Positions 27,873 through 58,600 of a DNA stretch of 59,908 nt are shown here, piece by piece. Made by a program: the position numbers and the translations under genes. Numbering within the stretch: the first letter of the stretch is position 1; every line of letters starts with the position of its first letter. The stretch spans positions 1-59,908 of IMG/VR virus record IMGVR_UViG_3300004805_000007. One strand, given 5' to 3'. The notes beneath the pieces were generated by a model. That model did not search any database. It had not been told where the DNA came from and saw only the letters and a program-made list of their open reading frames with translations. Source of the stretch: a virus. Taxonomy: Duplodnaviria > Caudoviricetes.

Positions 27873-30212
27873 ATGCCAGTTGAAAAAGCCCTACGTGCTG
27901 AAGACCTGCCTTCAGGCAGCATGGACATTGAAGTCGATGACGGTCCGCTGCCCGATGTCAACATCACCTTTGACATTGAGACCGGTGGCGTGGTCATTGA
28001 CATGGGCGAAGACGATGCTGCTGAAGTCCCCTTTGACAGCAACCTTGCCGAGGTAGTACCGGAGTCTGTCCTTGCCTCTATCTCTCAAGAACTAATGGAC
28101 ATGTTTGATGCGGACGTGGCATCACGCAAGGAGTGGGAAGATCAGTACAGCAAGGGCCTCAAGCTCTTGGGCTTTAACATCGAAGAGCGCACCCGTCCCT
28201 TCAAAGGAGCGTGCGGCGTGAGCCACCCCTTGCTCACCGAGAGCATCGTCCAGTTCCAATCCCAAGCACTCAAGGAATTGCTCCCTGCCGAAGGCCCCGT
28301 GCGTACGCAAGTGATGGGCAAGGAAACCCGCGAGAAGCTGATGCAAGCGGATCGCGTGCGGGACTACATGAACTACCAAATCACAGACGTGATGGAAGAG
28401 TACACGCCTGAGTTTGACCAGCTTTTGTTCTACACCGGTTACGGCGGCTCCACTTTCAAGAAGGTCTACTACGACGAGAACAAGGGTCGCATGGTGAGCG
28501 CTCTTGTGTTGGCCGACAACCTGTACATCCCGTACCACGGTTCGTCAGTCATGAGCGAATGCGAACGCATCACGCACCGCGTATTCATGTCCGCCAACGC
28601 CTACCGCAAGGCCGTGGTTCGCGGTCAGTACTTAGATGATGCCGAGACCGCAGACGCTGGCAGCAATAGCCCAAGCGTTATCCAAAAGGCAGTGGACAAG
28701 CTGACCGGCGTGGCCCCCACTCCTGATAACGATGAAGTCTCCTTGCTGGAATTCCAAGTTGACTACGATCTCCCCGGCTTTGAAGACAAGGATGAGGAGG
28801 GCGAGGAAACAAATATCCAATTGCCCTACATCATCACTGTGGATGAGACCTCCAAATCCGTTGTTGGCATCCGCCGCAATTGGGAAGAGGGCGACAAAAA
28901 GCATGCACGCAAACAGTACTACGTGCACTACATCTTGGTCCAAGGCCCGGGAGCCTATGGCCTTGGTTTCTTGCAATTGGTTGGTGGCCTGACCAAGACA
29001 GCAACGTCTGCCTTGCAGCAACTGGTCGATGCCGGTACGTTCGCCAATCTGCCAGCGGGCTTTAAGGCCAAGGGCGCACGGATCATGAATGATGACGTGC
29101 CGCTGCAACCGGGTGAGTTCCGGGACATGGATGCAGGCGGAGCAGAGTTGCAGTCCTCCCTGTTGCCGCTGCCGTACAAGGAGCCAAGTCAGACGTTGTT
29201 TACTCTGCTTGGATTTTGCGTGGACGCTGGTCGGCGCATGGCATCTATCACCGACATGCAAGTTGGCGACAGCAACCAAAATGCCGCCGTGGGCACAACG
29301 ATTGCACTGCTGGAAAAAGGCAGCGCGGTCATGTCCTCTATCCACAAGCGCCTGCACTACAGCCAGAAGCTGGAGTTCCAATTGCTGGCCAAGGGTTTTG
29401 CGGAGTTCCTTCCTGACCAGTATCCGTACGATGTCCCCGGCGAGTCGCGCCTCATCAAGAAGTCTGACTTTGATGACCGTGTGGACGTACTGCCGGTATC
29501 TGACCCCAACATCTTCTCGGTGGCCCAGCGCATTACTATGGCGCAAACCCAGTTACAACTGGCTCAGAGCGCTCCGCAGATGCACAACATGTACGAGTCG
29601 TACCGTAGGATGTACGAAGCCATTGGCGTGCGGGATATTGACTCCATCTTGAACTCGCAGAACGTGGACAAGCCTAAAGACCCGGCCAGCGAAAACAGCA
29701 TGGCGTTGGACGGCTCACCGCTTAAAGCTTTTGCTGGCCAACAGCACGATGCGCACATAATGACTCATTTAATGTTTGGTATGTCACCAATAGTGCAGGG
29801 CGCTCCGGGCGCACCCATTATTTTGCAGAAACATATCCTTGAACACATCTCTATCCAAGCCGAAGAGGCCGTGGAAGCTGAACTGTTTAAGCAATACGGC
29901 ACTGACCCTGACTCAATGATCTCGCCGCTGCAACGCGAAGCCATGGTGGCTTTAAAGGTAGTAGAAGGTTTTCAAGCAATGAAGGCTATGCAGGACAAGT
30001 TGCAGCCTCCATCTCCCCCTGATCCATTGATTGATTTGAAGAAACAAGAGCTTCAGCAGTCTGCTGCCAGCGATCAAGCCAAGCAACAGGTCAATCAGGC
30101 CAAGCTACAGCTTGATCAGCAGAAAGAACAGTCCGATGAACGCATGGATCAGGCCAACTTGGCCTTGAAACAGCAACAACTAGGAGCCCAAAATGGCAAC
30201 CAAGCCCGTTAA
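27873..30212 (+). CDS. Portal protein (P22-like)
   Basis: 779 aa between terL and the capsid genes; helical core and Gln-rich coiled-coil C-terminus. Confidence 0.85.
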   Translation: MPVEKALRAEDLPSGSMDIEVDDGPLPDVNITFDIETGGVVIDMGEDDAAEVPFDSNLAEVVPESVLASISQELMDMFDADVASRKEWEDQYSKGLKLLGFNIEERTRPFKGACGVSHPLLTESIVQFQSQALKELLPAEGPVRTQVMGKETREKLMQADRVRDYMNYQITDVMEEYTPEFDQLLFYTGYGGSTFKKVYYDENKGRMVSALVLADNLYIPYHGSSVMSECERITHRVFMSANAYRKAVVRGQYLDDAETADAGSNSPSVIQKAVDKLTGVAPTPDNDEVSLLEFQVDYDLPGFEDKDEEGEETNIQLPYIITVDETSKSVVGIRRNWEEGDKKHARKQYYVHYILVQGPGAYGLGFLQLVGGLTKTATSALQQLVDAGTFANLPAGFKAKGARIMNDDVPLQPGEFRDMDAGGAELQSSLLPLPYKEPSQTLFTLLGFCVDAGRRMASITDMQVGDSNQNAAVGTTIALLEKGSAVMSSIHKRLHYSQKLEFQLLAKGFAEFLPDQYPYDVPGESRLIKKSDFDDRVDVLPVSDPNIFSVAQRITMAQTQLQLAQSAPQMHNMYESYRRMYEAIGVRDIDSILNSQNVDKPKDPASENSMALDGSPLKAFAGQQHDAHIMTHLMFGMSPIVQGAPGAPIILQKHILEHISIQAEEAVEAELFKQYGTDPDSMISPLQREAMVALKVVEGFQAMKAMQDKLQPPSPPDPLIDLKKQELQQSAASDQAKQQVNQAKLQLDQQKEQSDERMDQANLALKQQQLGAQNGNQAR

Positions 30213-32471: not shown

Positions 32472-33059
32472 ATGGCAAATGTAAATAAGCCTTTTGGTCT
32501 GCGTCCGCTAGGTAATCTTTCAGCTACTGGTGCTCAAAAGCAGTATGGCTATCTGATTGCAAGTGGATACGGAACTGCGATCTATCAGGGCGACTTAGTT
32601 GTTGTCTATGACGGATACATCATCAAGTATGACGCTTCCACACACACTGCCCCCACGGGCGTGTTTAACGGTTGCCAATACAACGACCCGACTCGCACCG
32701 ACAAACCAACTTGGAAGAATTACTACCCCGGTAGTATTACCCCCAATATTGGTAGCATTGTGTGTGAAGTTCAGGACGATCCAAACCAATTGTTCCTTGT
32801 ACAGGCAGATGGTTCGGTCACCCAAGCAAACATCGGCAAAAATGCTGACCCAACTGCGTCTACCACTGGCAGTACCTACACCGGTATCTCCAATGGAACT
32901 CTCAGTTCGTCCTCCATTGCTAAGACTGCTGCATTGACGTTCAAAATCGTGGGTCTATCCGACACCTCGACGAACGCATTTGGCACCTATGCACAGGTGG
33001 TTGTGAAACTTAATCAACATCAATACGGTAGTGTTGGCGTTGCAGCAGACGGAGCATAA
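32472..33059 (+). CDS. Putative capsid decoration/minor head protein
   Basis: MAN..PFGLRP, IYQGD, GVFNGC and DDP motifs; directly before the MCP. Confidence 0.7.
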   Translation: MANVNKPFGLRPLGNLSATGAQKQYGYLIASGYGTAIYQGDLVVVYDGYIIKYDASTHTAPTGVFNGCQYNDPTRTDKPTWKNYYPGSITPNIGSIVCEVQDDPNQLFLVQADGSVTQANIGKNADPTASTTGSTYTGISNGTLSSSSIAKTAALTFKIVGLSDTSTNAFGTYAQVVVKLNQHQYGSVGVAADGA

Positions 33060-33061
33060 TC

Positions 33062-33976
33062 ATGGCTATTACACGTTCACAACTCGTAAAAGAGCTAGAG
33101 CCCGGACTCAATGCCTTGTTTGGTATGGAGTACAACCGCTATGAAAACGAACACGAAGAGATTTTCGAAATCGAATCTTCTGACCGTGCGTTTGAAGAAG
33201 AGGTAATGTTGACCGGCTTCGGTTCTGCTCCAACCAAGGTTGAAGGCGCAGGCGTGCAATATGACACCGCGAACGAATCGTTCACGGCCCGTTATACGCA
33301 CGAAACCATTGCAATGGCGTTTGCATTGACTGAAGAAGCTGTAGAGGACAACCTCTATGACCGCCTCTCTGGTCGCTACACCAAAGCACTGGCGCGTTCG
33401 ATGTCTCACACCAAGCAAGTCAAGGCGGCTTCTGTACTGAACAATGCATTTACTGGCGGCAATTATGTCGGCGGTGACGGCGTTTCTCTGTGCAACTTGA
33501 ACCACCCCACTGCACTGGCTCAAAACTTTGCCAATACGCCTTCGACTCAGGCTGACCTGAACGAAACGTCTTTGGAACAAGGTTTGATCGACATTGCAAG
33601 CTTCATCGACGAGCGTGGCTTGAAGATCGCTGTTATGGGCAAGAAAATGATTGTTCCAAAAGAACTTCAGTTTACTGCCGAGCGCCTGATGAAGTCCACT
33701 CTGCGTACTGCGACTGCCGACAACGATATCAATGCCATCAAATCGATGGGCTTGATTCCTGACGGTTATGCCGTGAACCACTTCTTGACCGACACCAACG
33801 CATGGTTCATCATGACCGATGCGCCCAACGGTCTGAAGATGTTCCAGCGTTCGCCAATCAAGACCGCCTTTGAAGGCGATTTTGACACCGGCAATGTGCG
33901 CTACAAGGCTCGTGAGCGTTACAGCTTCGGCTGGTCTGACCCTCGCGGCATCTACGGCTCTTCGGGTTCGACCTGA
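33062..33976 (+). CDS. Major capsid protein (Mu gpT-like, HK97 fold)
   Basis: MAITRSQL.KEL.PGLNALFG...YKARERYSFGWSDPRG; followed by a strong terminator. Confidence 0.88.
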   Translation: MAITRSQLVKELEPGLNALFGMEYNRYENEHEEIFEIESSDRAFEEEVMLTGFGSAPTKVEGAGVQYDTANESFTARYTHETIAMAFALTEEAVEDNLYDRLSGRYTKALARSMSHTKQVKAASVLNNAFTGGNYVGGDGVSLCNLNHPTALAQNFANTPSTQADLNETSLEQGLIDIASFIDERGLKIAVMGKKMIVPKELQFTAERLMKSTLRTATADNDINAIKSMGLIPDGYAVNHFLTDTNAWFIMTDAPNGLKMFQRSPIKTAFEGDFDTGNVRYKARERYSFGWSDPRGIYGSSGST

Positions 33977-34013
33977 TAAGCTTCAGTACGGTAGAGGTGA
34001 CTGGCCTGCCACT

Positions 34014-34040
34014 AGGGCCCCTTCGGGGGCCCTTTTTATT
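34014..34040 (+). terminator. Intrinsic terminator after the MCP
   Basis: AGGGCCCC-TTCG-GGGGCCCT followed by a T-tract (cUUCGg loop). Confidence 0.9.
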
Positions 34041-34115
34041 GTTTCAAATCTGTCATAAATGCCGCCTAAGATGTGCTTGCAGCGCGGTGTTGCATCATTT
34101 TTATAGGGGTTTATC

Positions 34116-34373
34116 ATGGACATTACATTTGTGGCTAAAGTTGATTTGTTTGATTTCCTTAGCTATTTTGGGGTTGAAGTTGAGGATGTTTTTGGTGATG
34201 AAGTTGAAGATGAGTTTGCTGACGAAGAGTATGTATATGATGATGAAGGCGTAGCGTATTGGTACGACGAAGAAAATGAAGTTTGGTACGCATACGACGA
34301 AGAGTCTGACGACTGGTACGAGTGCGAAGAAGTTGCGGAAGACGAAGCTGAAGAGGAAGAGTCCGCTGCTTAA
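34116..34373 (+). CDS. Highly acidic, aromatic-rich small protein
   Basis: About 36 of 85 residues are D/E, with one K; repeated [YW]x[YW]DEE. Confidence 0.7.
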   Translation: MDITFVAKVDLFDFLSYFGVEVEDVFGDEVEDEFADEEYVYDDEGVAYWYDEENEVWYAYDEESDDWYECEEVAEDEAEEEESAA

Positions 34374-34385
34374 TTGGGTACGACC

Positions 34386-34757
34386 CTACCCAGATTGGGA
34401 GGCTTTGGCCTCCTTTTTCTTTTGTCTTTCATTGTAGTGGTGTATGCGGTGGCAGTTTGAACACAGAACTATACATTTTGCCGCTTCTTTGTACGCTAGT
34501 TTGTACCGGCCGTTTTGGGCTAACTCATTAACGCTGTATTCTTTAGTATCCGGCGGGTGATGGAAATCTATACAGGCGGGGTGGTTAAACCCGCAATTTG
34601 AACAAGATAGACGGGCTTTGTAGTCTTTCCACTCCTTGCGTTTTTCCCTGCGACGATCATTGATACGGTTTTTTTCAGCCTCTTTGTTCCTTTCGTAGTA
34701 CTTTGCTGAGTATTCCTTGTGCTTTGCCTTGTGAACTTCTGGGTCTTTGAAGGGCAT
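34386..34757 (-). CDS. HNH endonuclease
   Basis: CSNCG...DFHH...KC.VLCSNCHRIHH. Confidence 0.85.
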   Translation of the reverse strand: MPFKDPEVHKAKHKEYSAKYYERNKEAEKNRINDRRREKRKEWKDYKARLSCSNCGFNHPACIDFHHPPDTKEYSVNELAQNGRYKLAYKEAAKCIVLCSNCHRIHHYNERQKKKEAKASQSG

Positions 34758-34758
34758 A

Positions 34759-34786
34759 TTGACAAGCCTTAAAAATAGTGTATATT
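34759..34786 (+). promoter_or_regulatory. sigma70-like promoter
   Basis: TTGACA-N16-TATATT. Confidence 0.65.
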
Positions 34787-34795
34787 GCAGCTAAC

Positions 34796-34868
34796 CCGGG
34801 CTTTCCGGTACATTGAACTGTCCCGGCAGACGACATACCGATCAATGTACTTCACTTGTATGTAAGGA
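34796..34868 (+). ncRNA. Double-pseudoknot RNA element (possibly the Mu-gpT-DE motif)
   Basis: Four perfect pairings: CCGGG/CCCGG, GTACATTGA/TCAATGTAC, CTG/CAG, ACATAC/GTATGT; downstream of the gpT-like capsid gene. Confidence 0.7.
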
Positions 34869-34876
34869 CTATTAAT

Positions 34877-35416
34877 ATGGCACGCACTACGTTCAGCGGC
34901 CCCCTTCGTTCGATGGGTGGCTTGTATCAACAGGGCCCCGGCGCTGTTCTTACGCTCACTTCCAGCACTACGCTGGACCCCGTCACCCACGGCGGACGGC
35001 TTTTGGTTATTGGCGGCTCTTTGGCGGCTGCTTTGACCTTGACTCTCCCCACCATCAACACCAACGCTGATGCTTCCACTGCTGGCCCGGGCCGCGATTA
35101 CAACACCCAGAATAATCTAGGCGTGCTGTACACCATTTGGGTTTCCACCACGATTAGCACTAGCTCTTTGAAGATTGGTACTGATGGCACTGACAAATTC
35201 ATCGGCTCTCTGTTGTCGGTGGACACCGATTCGGCTGGCGCAATGGTAGGTTTTACTGCCGCAGCTTCAAACGACTTCATCAATTTGAATGGAACGACCA
35301 CTGGTGGCGTTGCAGGCACTTGGATTGAGATCCGCGCAATTGCCGCATTGAAGTACTGCGTCACTGGCGTGATCCTCGGCACTGGCACCGTTGCTACACC
35401 GTTTGCCGATTCCTAA
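34877..35416 (+). CDS. Virion structural protein
   Basis: MARTTFSGP start after SD AAGGA; G/T/A-rich and beta-like; ends ATPFADS. Confidence 0.75.
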   Translation: MARTTFSGPLRSMGGLYQQGPGAVLTLTSSTTLDPVTHGGRLLVIGGSLAAALTLTLPTINTNADASTAGPGRDYNTQNNLGVLYTIWVSTTISTSSLKIGTDGTDKFIGSLLSVDTDSAGAMVGFTAAASNDFINLNGTTTGGVAGTWIEIRAIAALKYCVTGVILGTGTVATPFADS

Positions 35417-35427
35417 TAGGAGGCCCT

Positions 35428-35943
35428 ATGAGTGGCTTTCAATTTGACGTAAAAAGTTCGCATGTAAATGCCAGTGGCCAAATGGTCACTGGCAGAACGC
35501 GCCTGAAAGGCGTTATTGGTATTGGCTCTGGCACAGCAGGCACAGTGAACATTTGGGATTCTTCTGCGGCCCCAACTGCCGTCACTTATGGCCGTGCTGG
35601 AACTCTTATCACCATTACTCTGGCCTCCCACGGCTTGACTACCGGTGATGTGGTCGGCCTCGCCTTTGGCGCAGGCACAGGTGGTACAGCTACCAATGGA
35701 AATTATGTTGTTACGGTACTCACATCGAGTACATACACTGTAACGGACATTAATTCCGGTAGCATCACTGCCGGTGCAGCAGCTTCCCAAAGCGCCGTTG
35801 GTTCCCGTTGGATGACTTCATGGGACACCACAAATAACTCCGCTACGGTCACACTGTTGATCCCCGGCGATGGTATTTGGGCAACTAATGGCTTGTATGC
35901 TCAATTGTCAAACCAGACTGGCTTGACTATTTATTACGGATAA
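35428..35943 (+). CDS. Virion structural protein
   Basis: G/T-rich and beta-like; HGL.TGD.V insert; ends TIYYG. Confidence 0.7.
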   Translation: MSGFQFDVKSSHVNASGQMVTGRTRLKGVIGIGSGTAGTVNIWDSSAAPTAVTYGRAGTLITITLASHGLTTGDVVGLAFGAGTGGTATNGNYVVTVLTSSTYTVTDINSGSITAGAAASQSAVGSRWMTSWDTTNNSATVTLLIPGDGIWATNGLYAQLSNQTGLTIYYG

Positions 35944-35953
35944 GGAGTCCATC

Positions 35954-36139
35954 ATGGGACGTGCAGCAAAAATGGCAGATGATCAGTACCAAGGCGAATG
36001 CCAGCCCGGTGCGCAAAAGCAAGACATGGGCAAGGGTGGCCCTAAACAAACGCCTAGGAAGCCCGGAAAAGGCCCCGTAAGCTCTGTTTCTCCCCGTGGT
36101 GTAGGTCAGGCCCGCAATAAGCCTTGCAAGATGTACTAA
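35954..36139 (+). CDS. Small basic protein
   Basis: SD AAGGAG; C-terminal RG.G.A...CKMY. Confidence 0.6.
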   Translation: MGRAAKMADDQYQGECQPGAQKQDMGKGGPKQTPRKPGKGPVSSVSPRGVGQARNKPCKMY

Positions 36140-36148
36140 GGAGCAGCC

Positions 36149-36301
36149 ATGAAGCCCGGTTTGTATGCCAACATCAATGCAAAACAGGACCGGATTAAAG
36201 CTGGTTCTGGTGAAAAGATGAGAAAAGTTGGTAGCAAAGGCGCTCCAACCGCTGCTGCTTTTAAACAATCCGCAAAAACTGCAAAGAAGCCTAAAAAATG
36301 A
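36149..36301 (+). CDS. Small basic protein, 50 aa (absent from the ORF track)
   Basis: MKPGLYANINAK..RI.AGSGEKMRK.GSKGAPT; SD AAGGAG; ATGA overlap. Confidence 0.7.
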   Translation: MKPGLYANINAKQDRIKAGSGEKMRKVGSKGAPTAAAFKQSAKTAKKPKK

Positions 36302-36540
36302 AGTCCCCGGCATGGCAGCGTAAGGAAGGCAAAAACCCCAATGGGGGCTTGAATGCCAAGGGCCGCGCCTCTGCCAAGAAACAAGGGATGAATTTGAAAG
36401 CTCCTCAGCCAGAAGGCGGTAGCAGGAAAGATTCTTTTTGTGCACGAATGGAAGGCATGAAAAAGAAACTTACCAGCGAAAAAACGGCGAAAGACCCAAA
36501 TTCACGAATCAATAAAAGCCTTCGTGCTTGGAAATGCTGA
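36298..36540 (+). CDS. Small basic protein (DUF6321-like)
   Basis: WQRKEGKNP.GGLN.KGRAS...SFCARM...SRINKSLRAWKC. Confidence 0.75.
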   Translation: MKSPAWQRKEGKNPNGGLNAKGRASAKKQGMNLKAPQPEGGSRKDSFCARMEGMKKKLTSEKTAKDPNSRINKSLRAWKC

Positions 36541-55616: not shown

Positions 55617-58600
55617 TGGCCGTAATCACCGATGCAAATGGGAATGATGTTGATCTAACAACGGGGGAGATTGTTGGGCGGGCAAACGCTGCCCCCGCAC
55701 AATCCCAGCAGCCCATTACTGAAGGACGCACTCCACAGGGTGTCCCTGCGCGGGAAACGAATTTAGACCTCTCTTCAAAGAGCCCTATGGATGCCGTGAC
55801 GGGCTTGGTCAACAATCTATCGTGGGGCTTTAACTCTGCACTTTTTGCACTGCCGGACTTGGCCTACAAGAAATTTGCAGAGGCCAATGGCCTTAAGGGC
55901 GAAGAGATCACGCAGCTTTCCAAGATCTTTAATCGTGGAGAAACTACGCCAAAGAACTCATACGAGCGCTATGCGCGGGCCATTGGCGAAGGCGCTGGAA
56001 TGACACTTCCCTTCACCGGAGTCTTGGGCGCGGTTGCCGCAGCACGCCCCATCACAGGTTTGATGGTTGCTCCTCAAGCGGGCATAAAAGGCGTACTCAA
56101 AGGTATTGCCGATGACACGCTCAACTACATTGCCAAGAACCCAATGCAGGCCGCTGCCACTGATGTGGCTTTTGGCTCAGCTTATGAGGGCTTGAAGCAA
56201 GCTGTGCAGGAGAACGTGGACGATAGCGATCCCAACAAAGGAATGCTTAAAGAAGTCCTTCCCGCTGCTGCCTTCTTGGGCCCCGCTGCATGGTACGCGG
56301 TTTCTCCTACGCGCAATGTGGCCAGTTGGGTAAAGAACAAAGTATCGGGCGCTACTATTAAACCTGCTGATTTAAGCGGAGTCCAACAAGAGGCACTGGA
56401 AAGCCTGCCAGCCGGTTACCAGCTTCCAATTATCAACATCTTCCCCCGCGCCATGCTTAAACGGGCGGAGCAAAAACTGGTCAATGTATTTGGCCCGATT
56501 GCCGAGAGCCCCGAAGCAAAGACTGCGCTTGACCAACTACAGACCGCGCTCCAAGACCCGCGAGTCGCGGAACACTTTCTTGTCAATGGCCAAAGCACTT
56601 TGGATGCCGCAGAGCAGACCATGTATGGCCCATTGCTGCAAGAAAAGGCACGTTTGTTGAATGAGCTTGGCCCAGCAGAGTTGGCCAGCGTCAAAGCACG
56701 GATCGCGGACAATCAACAGCGGTTTAGCGCACTGATGGATTCTTTTGCCCCAGAGACCCGCAAACCTATTGAAGAGGCCTTCCGCGCTGCACAGGCAGAT
56801 CGCCAAGCCTTTTTTGAAGACATGTTGCGCCAACAAAAGGATTTGACGGCAGGGGAGGTTGAAGCAATTTCCCAGCGCCTTGGCCCGCAGGATATCAATA
56901 ACCTAAACAATGAGTTGCGTGGTGTCATTGCTGCAAGCATGGAGATGGATTCCAATATGCGTAAAACCATATTGGGAAGAATGGGGCTGCGTCAGGGCAC
57001 TTCTCCAGAAGGATTGCCCATGCCTACCCGTGAACAAGGAGCTTCCTTGTTCCCCTCAGAGGACATGGAAATTGCCGCAACCAATTTGATTGAGAAGTAC
57101 AAGATTGACCGCCCCTCCATGCGCCTATCTTTGCCTGAGCCTATCAAGCTACTGAGCGATTTTGTCACCCGGCAGCAGCTTGCCCGCGACAAGATTGAGA
57201 CTAATATGTTGACGCAGTTGACCGATCAATCAATATCTGAGCAACTGATAGGTCTCCCCGAGGAGTTCCAAAAAGCACTTCGCAGTGAAGTGCTTAAAAC
57301 CATTAAAGGCGAGGTTGGCAGCAAAGGGCGCAAGCGGGGCGTGGCGCTCTCTGACCTTGCCAGCAAAGCTGATGCGCAGGGAAATATCTCCCTACCTTCC
57401 GGCTACCCCGGCAGGAACATCGTAATCAATCCTACGCAGATCAAGGCTGACGCTGCGCGAATCGCGGAGGAAAGCACCAAGATCGATATCAACATGCCTG
57501 AGGCACTTGACTATCTGTCCGCTGCCCAACGGTTCCGTAATGACTCTCTGTTCCGATACAACAACGCCATGAAAAATGGCCGTATGCGTATTACGGATGC
57601 GGACCGGTACATCAAGACGGGCGATTCGGTTTACAGCGATATTGAGAAATTGATCTTGGACCACGTGCCAAAGATCAACCGCAACTACGACAACATGAAG
57701 GGCATCCTCACGGACTATCGTGCTGGATATGAGCAGACGCTGCCTCTTTTGATCACCCAGAAGACCCGTGGTGGCGAGTCTTATTTGCTTCCTAACGAAC
57801 AGTTGATGCAAAAGGCTTTCTCTGATGCGGGGAGCTTGAAGCAGCTACAACTGACGCTTGGCAACCTACCACAGAGCGAGGACTTGCTTCGCCGGGGCAC
57901 GATTGACTGGCTGCGCAGCAAAGGTGTTGTCAACCAGCAAGGCTTGGTAGATCCGGCAAAGATTCGCTCGGTGCTGGACAAGAACTTGAACATTGTCAAT
58001 GCCCTTCCTGCCAACATCCAAGCGGAAGTCAAGAACGAAGTAGCGTTGGCTGACAGCTACGTTTCCCGTTTGGGAGAGCTTGATCAGCGGATGGTCACTG
58101 CAAAGAACGCAGAGTTGGATTCCATGCTGGCCAAGGCTTCCCGCGCTGATGCTGATCCCTCTACAGTGTTGCAAAAAGCTCTGTCTGACCCTGCCACCAT
58201 GCGCACGCTGGTCACTGAGTTTGGCAAAGACCCTGAGATGCTTAAATCCCTGCGTAGGTCTGTCTACGACATGGCCACGAAAGGAGCGCAAAAGGGCGGG
58301 GCGCTTAAAGGCTTCTTGGACCAGAACGACAAATCCCTAAAAGTTTTGTTTGGGGACACCACGCATTTACAAGACTTGAAGACCTTGGCCGACATGCAAC
58401 GCCGGGTAAATGCTTTTGCTGATGTGACGGGGCAGATCCCGGTGTTTGAGTCTACGGACGAGAAGCTGAAGCGCCTGTTTGGCTTTGGCATTCAATTCTT
58501 GACAACCACGGCCCGCGAAGCGGCAGTAGGCCGTATCAATCCCGAAACAGGGGCGCTTGCTTTGATGCTGCGCTTGGCTGGGAAAACTGAAACTCAGTTA

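Follow-up and report, generated by a model that had tools for sequence, protein, structure and literature searches.

A multiply pseudoknotted leader RNA at the ribosome-binding site of a putative virion-surface protein gene in lake and ocean phages

The window analysed here is the whole of the virus record IMGVR_UViG_3300004805_000007 (Duplodnaviria; Caudoviricetes), a stretch of 59,908 bases that is 97% complete. On its + strand, a gene for a protein of 179 amino acids (aa; 34877-35416), made up of an N-terminal MARTTFSGP peptide and a beta-sandwich knob, is preceded by a short leader that lies between a promoter and the Shine-Dalgarno (SD) sequence of the gene. Comparative evidence resolves this leader into five helices and two pseudoknots of the loop-to-strand kind, all within about 71 nucleotides (nt), and the leader is present in hundreds of lake and ocean phages, cultured SAR11 phages included. 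Its promoter consists of the -35 hexamer TTGACA (34759-34764) and the -10 hexamer TATATT (34781-34786), separated by 16 nt, and matches the consensus at 11 of 12 positions, the better of the two promoter-like sites listed in a scan of 33000-36500. The SD sequence, (T)AAGGA, occupies 34863-34868 and the start codon ATG 34877-34879. From these positions, the leader transcript is predicted to be some 84 nt long (about 34793-34876).

The pairing strands follow one another closely along the + strand. The 5′ strand of helix a, CCGGG (34796-34800), finds its partner in the loop of hairpin c. Helix b, of 9 base pairs (bp), opens with GTACATTGA (34808-34816) and is followed by a single unpaired A (34817). 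Hairpin c is then formed by CTG (34818-34820) and CAG (34827-34829), and its 6-nt loop holds the second strand of helix a, CCCGG (a′, 34822-34826). After a junction ACG (34830-34832), the 5′ strand of helix d, ACATAC (34833-34838), lies in the multiloop closed by b, and a further junction, CGA (34839-34841), leads to the 3′ strand of helix b, TCAATGTAC (34842-34850). Finally, CTT (34855-34857) and AAG (34864-34866) form the two strands of helix e; they enclose the second strand of helix d, GTATGT (d′, 34858-34863), as a 6-nt hairpin loop, and AAG supplies the first three bases of the SD sequence AAGGA. Helices a, b, c and d are all perfect Watson-Crick complements in the window, and the order of their strands (a, b, c, a′, c′, d, b′, d′) marks a pseudoknotted RNA. 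In the proposed fold, the central helix b would act as organiser, with hairpin c and the single strand d held within its loop; the 5′ tail (a) would pair to the c loop, and d′, presented in the loop of the 3′ hairpin e, would pair to d. Several bases between the helices hardly vary among the relatives described below, namely the A between b and c (A28 in the first row of alignment A5), the AC of the first junction (A41 and C42) and the GA in the columns before b′.

Folding of the single sequence is uninformative, as the minimum free energy program is blind to pseudoknots. The best nested structure of 34790-34885 reaches -17.9 kcal/mol against a mean of -19.8 kcal/mol for shuffled sequences (z +0.56); folds at least as stable arise in 134 of 200 shuffles. 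Since the single sequence is unremarkable, the case for structure rests on the comparison of relatives. These were collected in three protein-guided scans of viral contigs, which used the protein of the window and two diverged relatives and yielded 240 loci (L001-L240) with products down to 41% identity. The same contigs recur between scans, and counts are therefore given as distinct leaders. Two alignments were made with MAFFT in a structure-blind manner: A1 contains 61 distinct leaders, and A5 contains 86 leaders that differ from one another by more than 3 edits, with the motif-less locus L201 omitted and all five helices scored.

On A1, 96.8% of pair cells are standard pairs as opposed to 84.7% after shuffling, a value that none of 500 shuffles attained. 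Both sides change in 17 of the 23 pairs, and pairing drops to 20-48% when the partner strand is slid by 1-3 columns. On the more diverse A5, 84.5% of cells pair (61.6% shuffled; again 0 of 500 shuffles as high; 29-44% in slid registers), and the covariation score is 0.566 compared with 0.205 in shuffles. Helix b is paired in 97.3% of cells, with changes on both sides in 9 of 9 pairs. Helix c reaches 95.3%; all 86 leaders keep its closing C-G pair, and its middle pair occurs as UA in 38, AU in 30 and GC in 14 of them. Helices a, d and e are paired in 76.5, 67.5 and 84.4% of cells, respectively. By eye, the lower values of these three helices reflect a shifting of divergent sequence classes by MAFFT.

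For helices a and d, the leaders were also read individually with an in-house parser, which locates b and c first and then takes the best complement of the c loop upstream and of the d strand downstream; some of its parses are in the wrong register. It succeeded on 205 of 207 distinct leaders and gave at least 5 bp for helix a in 175 and for helix d in 193, with mean lengths of 5.14 and 6.76 bp, as compared with 3.64 and 4.14 bp when the leader's own flank was shuffled. More than ten compensatory types were listed for each of the two helices. Those of helix a include CCGGG/CCCGG, CTAGG/CCTAG, CCGGA/TCCGG, CCCAG/CTGGG, CTGAG/CTCAG, CCGTAT/ATACGG, CTAGC/GCTAG and ACTATAC/GTATAGT, and those of helix d include ACATAC/GTATGT, ACATGC/GCATGT, TCATGC/GCATGA, ATGCAC/GTGCAT, TAGTAG/CTACTA, TGTTAG/CTAACA, GTATAG/CTATAC, CCTAG/CTAGG and TTTACGAA/TTCGTAAA. 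An earlier reading of this locus from its letters alone, here called the original prediction, had proposed a pseudoknotted RNA of four helices, a to d, and had named a lack of covariation as the result that would speak against it. Covariation is found in all four, on both alignments and beyond all 500 shuffles of each, and every string listed in that reading is present at the position given for it. At the level of comparative sequence analysis, this confirms the leader as a real, evolutionarily conserved and multiply knotted RNA.

Two further features of the leader were considered and rejected. The first is a local hairpin between helix a and a CCGG at 34805-34808 (a:a″), a possible alternative to the pairing of a with the c loop. 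This hairpin forms in the CCGGG clade and is 92.6% paired on A1, yet just 3 cells change on both sides; by eye it is missing from the CTAGG, CCCAG, CCTAG and ACTATAC classes and thus is clade-specific at best. The other is an upstream mini-open reading frame of six codons, from ATG at 34845 to TAA at 34865, which lies inside b′, d′ and e′ without an SD sequence of its own. It was dropped because it is not conserved in other leader classes; in the commonest class, d′-e′ reads AUG-UAA, a start codon followed directly by a stop.

The promoter is conserved together with the fold. A -10-like hexamer stands at a near-constant distance in 165 of 171 distinct leaders, most often as TATATT (72 of the 165), and a TTG lies 16-18 nt 5′ of it in 101 of these 165, whereas shuffled sequences give 5.7 on average and 12 at most. 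The claim that the RNA has its own promoter is thus borne out, both by the match to consensus in the window and by the conserved position across leaders. The distance from the end of the -10 hexamer to helix a has its mode at 9 nt (72 of 113 leaders). Transcription should therefore start at about 34793-34794 and leave just 2-3 unpaired bases 5′ of helix a. When capsid gene and leader are immediate neighbours, as in L003, L010, L021 and L026, the -35 hexamer falls within the hairpin of the capsid terminator, in its loop and 3′ arm, reading TTGTGC in 28 cases and TTGCGC in 12, and terminator and promoter overlap in many loci.

Helix e is a predicted fifth helix, newly identified in this analysis. 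Its strands, CUU at 34855-34857 and AAG at 34864-34866, flank d′, so that d′ forms the loop of hairpin e just as a′ sits in the loop of hairpin c. The G[CT]ATG[TA] class comprises 146 distinct leaders; their innermost pair is U-A in 103, C-G in 40 and U.G in 3, and it is unpaired in none; the second pair is U-A in 141 and C-G in 5, and the third is C-G in 132 and a non-standard or wobble pair in 14. Other leader classes form the helix with GCG/CGC, GTG/CAC or CC/GG. Together, e′ and the last base of d′ place four of the six bases of UAAGGA in paired positions of the fold. The original prediction had the leader end at the SD sequence; AAGGA does directly follow d′ in the window, and the SD sequence starts 0 nt past d′ in 150 of 192 parsed leaders, an overlap with the ribosome-binding site of the kind that characterises pseudoknotted translational operators. 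In the AT-rich class typified by Pelagibacter phage HTVC027P, d′ itself (CTAGG) overlaps AGGAGG.

The leader is linked to the gene that it precedes. When the upstream 125 nt were inspected, virtually all loci showed the motif before the gene. They differ in this from L201 (1406-1503), where a homologue of the protein with 55-57% identity to the product of L048 is encoded without a leader and coding-like sequence reaches up to the start. A covariance model, R1, in which b, c and e are represented as pairs, finds exactly one match in the 59.9-kb genome, at 34786-34879. Across 87 diverse loci, R1 matches 77, once each and always ending at the ATG, and it does likewise in 80 of 80 loci found by pattern; the ten that it misses are L201, which lacks the motif by eye, and nine AT-rich leaders of the HTVC027P type, which carry it by eye. 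A homologue of the capsid gene lies upstream in 266 of the 287 loci that extend at least 400 nt in that direction. From the capsid stop codon to the ATG, the distance is at most 200 nt in 156, 201-400 nt in 5 and above 400 nt in 105 of the 287, and the leader stays beside its gene with or without 0.6-2 kb of intervening genes after the capsid gene. As the distance to the capsid gene varies and that to the ATG is fixed, the leader belongs to the downstream gene, with which it had rightly been said to remain despite the insert present in the window.

The wider distribution was followed with a degenerate core pattern of 20 nt, which represents one sequence class alone and has exact matches in at least 119 viral stretches. 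All 80 loci fetched from core matches (L243-L322) are full R1 hits, with 64.7-108 bits. By translated search (tblastn), homologues of the protein are also encoded by the cultured Pelagibacter phages HTVC023P (gp41) and HTVC027P (gp62), and the motif precedes the gene in both. Bacterial and archaeal genomes contain 34 matches to the core pattern, about as many as the 35 estimated by chance (35 bits, 1.2e12 positions). Nine of the 34 carry the full motif by R1 (>60 bits) and a tenth scores 20.2 bits; all ten are on contigs of metagenome-assembled genomes (MAGs). Matches in isolate genomes are at chance level, and hence no host or prophage can be assigned from the core pattern. The nine full copies (L363, L365, L367, L370, L371, L376, L378, L387 and L388) come from bins of unrelated phyla (Nanopelagicales, Armatimonadetes, Chloroflexota, Nitrosomonadales and others), and they most likely represent mis-binned phage contigs.

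The product of the downstream gene has no Pfam or PHROG match in the window. An AlphaFold2 model of the 179-aa protein (predicted local distance difference test, pLDDT, 82.4) consists of a low-confidence N-terminal arm and a beta-sandwich, whose closest structural counterpart is the knob at the C-terminus of the Pa223 capsid spike 9ny6_C (Foldseek E 8.6e-5; VIA alignment with Z 10.6 and root-mean-square deviation 2.4 over 100 residues). Knobs of baseplates and tailspikes, from T4 gp9/gp10 and the TSP4 domain, are nearly equal (Z 8-10), and the model would thus be that of a general trimeric phage knob. As described in bioRxiv 10.1101/2025.06.11.659172, the Pa223 spike is a trimer that is fixed to the three-fold axes of the capsid by its N-terminal 40 residues alone. 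The gene position and the conserved N-terminal peptide point to attachment at the capsid, and on the modelled fold the 179-aa protein is probably a capsid-surface spike or decoration protein.

Relatives of the leader precede rather different proteins. Just 14 of the 80 core-match loci encode a downstream homologue of the window's protein by tblastn; the products of the 80 loci fall into 17 blastp clusters, and their complete reading frames are 57-200 aa long, nine being cut by the end of the locus. An N-terminal peptide resembling M-x-x-T-T-F-x-G-P is nevertheless found in 67 of 78 readable products, with a MGFATHLGPW-type peptide in 8 and a different one in 3. Searches of the variable products against Pfam and PHROGs added almost nothing; one product has an SO2946-like C-terminal domain. 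By these sequence counts, the leader RNA is more conserved than the protein that it precedes, and we infer that the products form a family of spikes or decoration proteins, which a conserved anchor holds on the capsid and whose heads can be exchanged. As to expression, Table S3 of PMC12753301 classes HTVC027P gp62 as Late, with 52192, 40897 and 57723 reads at the last time point; at the same time point, the capsid gene gp59 has 233541, 187807 and 268359 reads, whereas for gp60 and gp63, the neighbours of gp62, the number is about 11,000 in either case. On its 3′ side, gp62 is followed by a strong terminator. These values fit a separate, strongly expressed unit of promoter, leader, gene and terminator; they do not address the role of the leader.

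Upstream of the leader, the gene order is that of a phage structural region. The portal gene (27873-30212; phrog_1216) is followed by three unnamed genes and by the gene for the gpT-like major capsid protein (33062-33976, + strand; PF25209 at 1.8e-12, PF10124 at 6.7e-5), with a strong terminator 3′ of it at 34014-34033. The insert of 0.7 kb between capsid gene and leader contains two genes. One is an 85-aa reading frame (34116-34373) with no family match in Pfam or PHROG; its extremely acidic product abounds in D, E, Y and W, it is served by a separate terminator (34397-34414), and a 24-residue piece of it is found again in 7 loci. The other encodes an HNH endonuclease (34386-34757, - strand; phrog_3106 at 9.6e-23). 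It is divergent to the leader promoter, and its start codon ends 1 nt short of the -35 hexamer in the window; the promoter scan of 33000-36500 found no minus-strand promoter for it. The stretch between capsid terminator and leader promoter (33976-34759 in the window) is an insertion hot spot, and 105 of 287 loci carry additional genes here, amounting to 0.5-2 kb. HNH homologues occupy this gap in 17 loci altogether (L001, L004, L006-L009, L011-L013, L015, L019, L020, L030, L077, L267, L305 and L306), and in L006 the homologue is directly beside the promoter. The highly conserved DNA of the leader may be a homing target of the adjoining HNH endonuclease.

On balance, we favour the reading that the leader is a cis-acting translational control element of the virion-surface protein gene at 34877, a view somewhat better than evenly supported by the sequence comparisons. 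It agrees with the 5′ cis-regulator considered in the original prediction, and its basis is the covarying fold, the overlap with the SD sequence and the linkage to the gene, together with the conserved promoter, a core sequence constrained beyond what pairing demands and the late, abundant expression of gp62. Transcription would begin 2-3 nt ahead of helix a, driven by the sigma-70-type promoter that belongs to the leader. Because e′ and the last base of d′ make up four of the six SD bases, fold and 30S binding should compete, and the folded state and 30S binding would be mutually exclusive at UAAGGA. The RNA would thereby set or switch the rate of translation initiation. A putative effector, either a protein or a small ligand, might recognise the near-invariant junction bases (A; AC; GA), either stabilising the fold or opening it; that these bases hardly vary suggests a specific partner.

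Several observations weigh against translational control of this kind. In 32 of 192 leaders the SD sequence lies 3-5 nt past d′ and outside e, and its pairing, though common, is therefore not universal among the sequences compared. Helix e comprises just 3 bp and amounts to about +1.6 kcal/mol as an isolated duplex, so that masking of the SD sequence may be weak; nearest-neighbour sums of this sort omit pseudoknot loop penalties and are indicative only. Simple masking also leaves the near-invariant junction bases unexplained. The paired cells of helices a and d on A5 remain at the low values given above, and the correction for shifted classes rests on the in-house parser. Finally, the variable downstream proteins share just a non-basic N-terminal peptide; given this variability (14 of 80 homologous; 17 clusters), simple autoregulation by the gene product is unlikely.

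Pseudoknotted translational operators provide the nearest functional precedent for the favoured reading. Well-known examples are the leader of T4 gene 32, the double pseudoknot of the Escherichia coli alpha operon, which is bound by S4, and the rpsO pseudoknot, which is bound by S15. As in the leader, a pseudoknot of the 5′ leader adjoins or covers the ribosome-binding site in each of them, the gene being strongly expressed, and they exert their control at translation initiation. The T4 gene 32 pseudoknot is also among the RNAs described in PMC10690425. The leader differs from these operators in having a central helix with two hairpin-loop-to-strand pseudoknots, in a fold that begins at the 5′ end of the transcript, and in preceding variable products, which makes autoregulation doubtful.

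Small pseudoknot riboswitches with translational platforms, namely preQ1-II, SAM-II, SAM-V and guanidine-III, offer a second comparison. As in the leader, the 3′ strand of the pseudoknot reaches the SD sequence, the RNA is compact and bases of the junctions are conserved. In contrast to these riboswitches, the leader has five helices rather than one H-type knot, precedes a gene for a virion protein rather than a metabolic one, and lacks an Rfam match; its context suggests no ligand. That the leader might be a new effector-sensing RNA switch, either a riboswitch for a host metabolite or a sensor for an intermediate of capsid assembly, with its two pseudoknots closing over the SD sequence, is a tentative proposal that we consider possible but doubtful.

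Other explanations of the conserved fold have to be set beside translational control. The most serious of them, although unlikely in our estimation, is a 5′-terminal stabiliser, in which the knot would bury the triphosphate end and block decay that depends on the 5′ end, whether by RppH, RNase E or a 5′-3′ exonuclease such as RNase J. The result would be a stable message for a protein that is required in amounts like those of the capsid, and such a role may coexist with translational control. Helix a lies only 2-3 nt from the probable start (9 nt past the -10 hexamer in the 72 of 113 leaders that form the mode). Moreover, both tails pair back inside an outer helix, which by analogy recalls the exonuclease-resistant RNAs of flaviviruses and plant viruses, where an outer helix closes a junction and both flanking tails pair back in. 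This likeness is one of topology only: the partners in loop and junction are swapped, and a 5′ leader of a bacterial phage is compared with 3′ untranslated regions of eukaryotic viruses. Stabilisers of the ompA type manage with a plain 5′ hairpin, and five helices, invariant junction bases and a helix that covaries with the SD sequence would be unneeded for that task. The message is late and abundant in HTVC027P, which would fit a stabiliser. The original prediction had also raised a ribozyme and a packaging-type RNA, two ideas for or against which the comparisons yielded no direct evidence. Far less probable than a stabiliser is a self-cleaving ribozyme, which would cut back transcripts, be they primary or the result of read-through, so that the mRNA begins at a defined 5′ end. 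Phage DNA does harbour several small ribozyme classes, and the leader is a compact, multiply pseudoknotted phage RNA with a few near-invariant junction bases. However, it matches no ribozyme in Rfam, only about 7 of its bases are near-invariant, and a promoter 2-3 nt upstream leaves little to remove. Ribozymes related to that of hepatitis delta virus (HDV) follow the order P1, P2, P3, P3′, P1′, P4, P4′, P2′ in a nested double pseudoknot; the leader departs from it (a, b, c, a′, c′, d, b′, d′), with a′ inside the c loop and d′ after b′.

To a promoter-proximal antitermination RNA, acting on RNA polymerase in the manner of HK022 put and allowing read-through into downstream structural genes, we give slightly less credence than to a ribozyme. 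The leader does stand at the very start of the transcript, and its conservation across SAR11 and freshwater phages would fit a universally conserved target. Against this, its position is locked to the SD sequence and start codon in every locus, and helix e covaries with bases of the SD sequence; in HTVC027P a strong terminator follows the gene, and the gene after it reaches about one third of its transcripts per million. Less probable again is conservation of a DNA site rather than of an RNA, a site between the capsid gene and an exchangeable spike gene that would serve as a boundary for recombination or as the target of a homing endonuclease. The insertion hot spot, the HNH genes abutting the promoter in 17 loci and the mosaic downstream genes would fit such a site; it could still add to the conservation of sequence, but it cannot yield compensatory changes that maintain five helices. 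Membership of a known phage motif can practically be set aside. Mu-gpT-DE RNAs are described as lying downstream of a gpT-like major head gene; the leader is likewise a phage RNA motif near, and 3′ of, a gpT-like capsid gene, which ends 0.9 kb upstream of it in the window and is separated from it by other genes in 105 of 287 loci. The original prediction had suggested this link from recall, together with a check by cmscan against Rfam. That search was run with Rfam 15 and returned no family: there are 0 matches at gathering score in the window and nothing over 34790-34876 at E<=10, and the motif in 12 related loci has no match at E<=1. For Mu-gpT-DE itself (RF03012; PMC7657543), the genome scores no higher than 11.2 bits, in a match at 58248-58295 and against a cut-off of 49, and none is found over 33900-35000 at E<=10, so that membership is refuted at the level of the Rfam model. 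Apart from failing that model, the leader belongs with the 5′ end of the next gene, with which it moves, rather than with the capsid gene's 3′ end.

In the literature on pelagiphage pseudoknots and on double-pseudoknot phage leaders, no publication describing the motif was found. It may nevertheless be among the 8,495 unnamed candidate RNAs from IMG/VR that form the DNAVirus_X set of PMC10690425, since those candidates share with the leader their IMG/VR source and their character as covarying intergenic RNAs upstream of phage genes. The core sequence and six contig names are absent from the readable supplements of that paper, a search that did not cover its alignment archives.

The leader combines five helices and two pseudoknots in some 71 nt, an architecture of ribozyme or riboswitch grade that is absent from Rfam 15. 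It occurs in at least 119 viral contigs, counting one sequence class alone, and in both cultured pelagiphages of the HTVC023P type. As the promoter is near the sigma-70 consensus, reporter work in E. coli would be simple, and an RNA-seq data set of HTVC027P infection exists. Were its function defined, the leader would add a new class of regulatory RNA to the control of phage late genes. If the proposal of an effector-sensing switch were true, RNA sensing, and not transcription, would set the timing or the dose of a virion-surface protein in the marine SAR11 phage group of greatest abundance and in its freshwater relatives.

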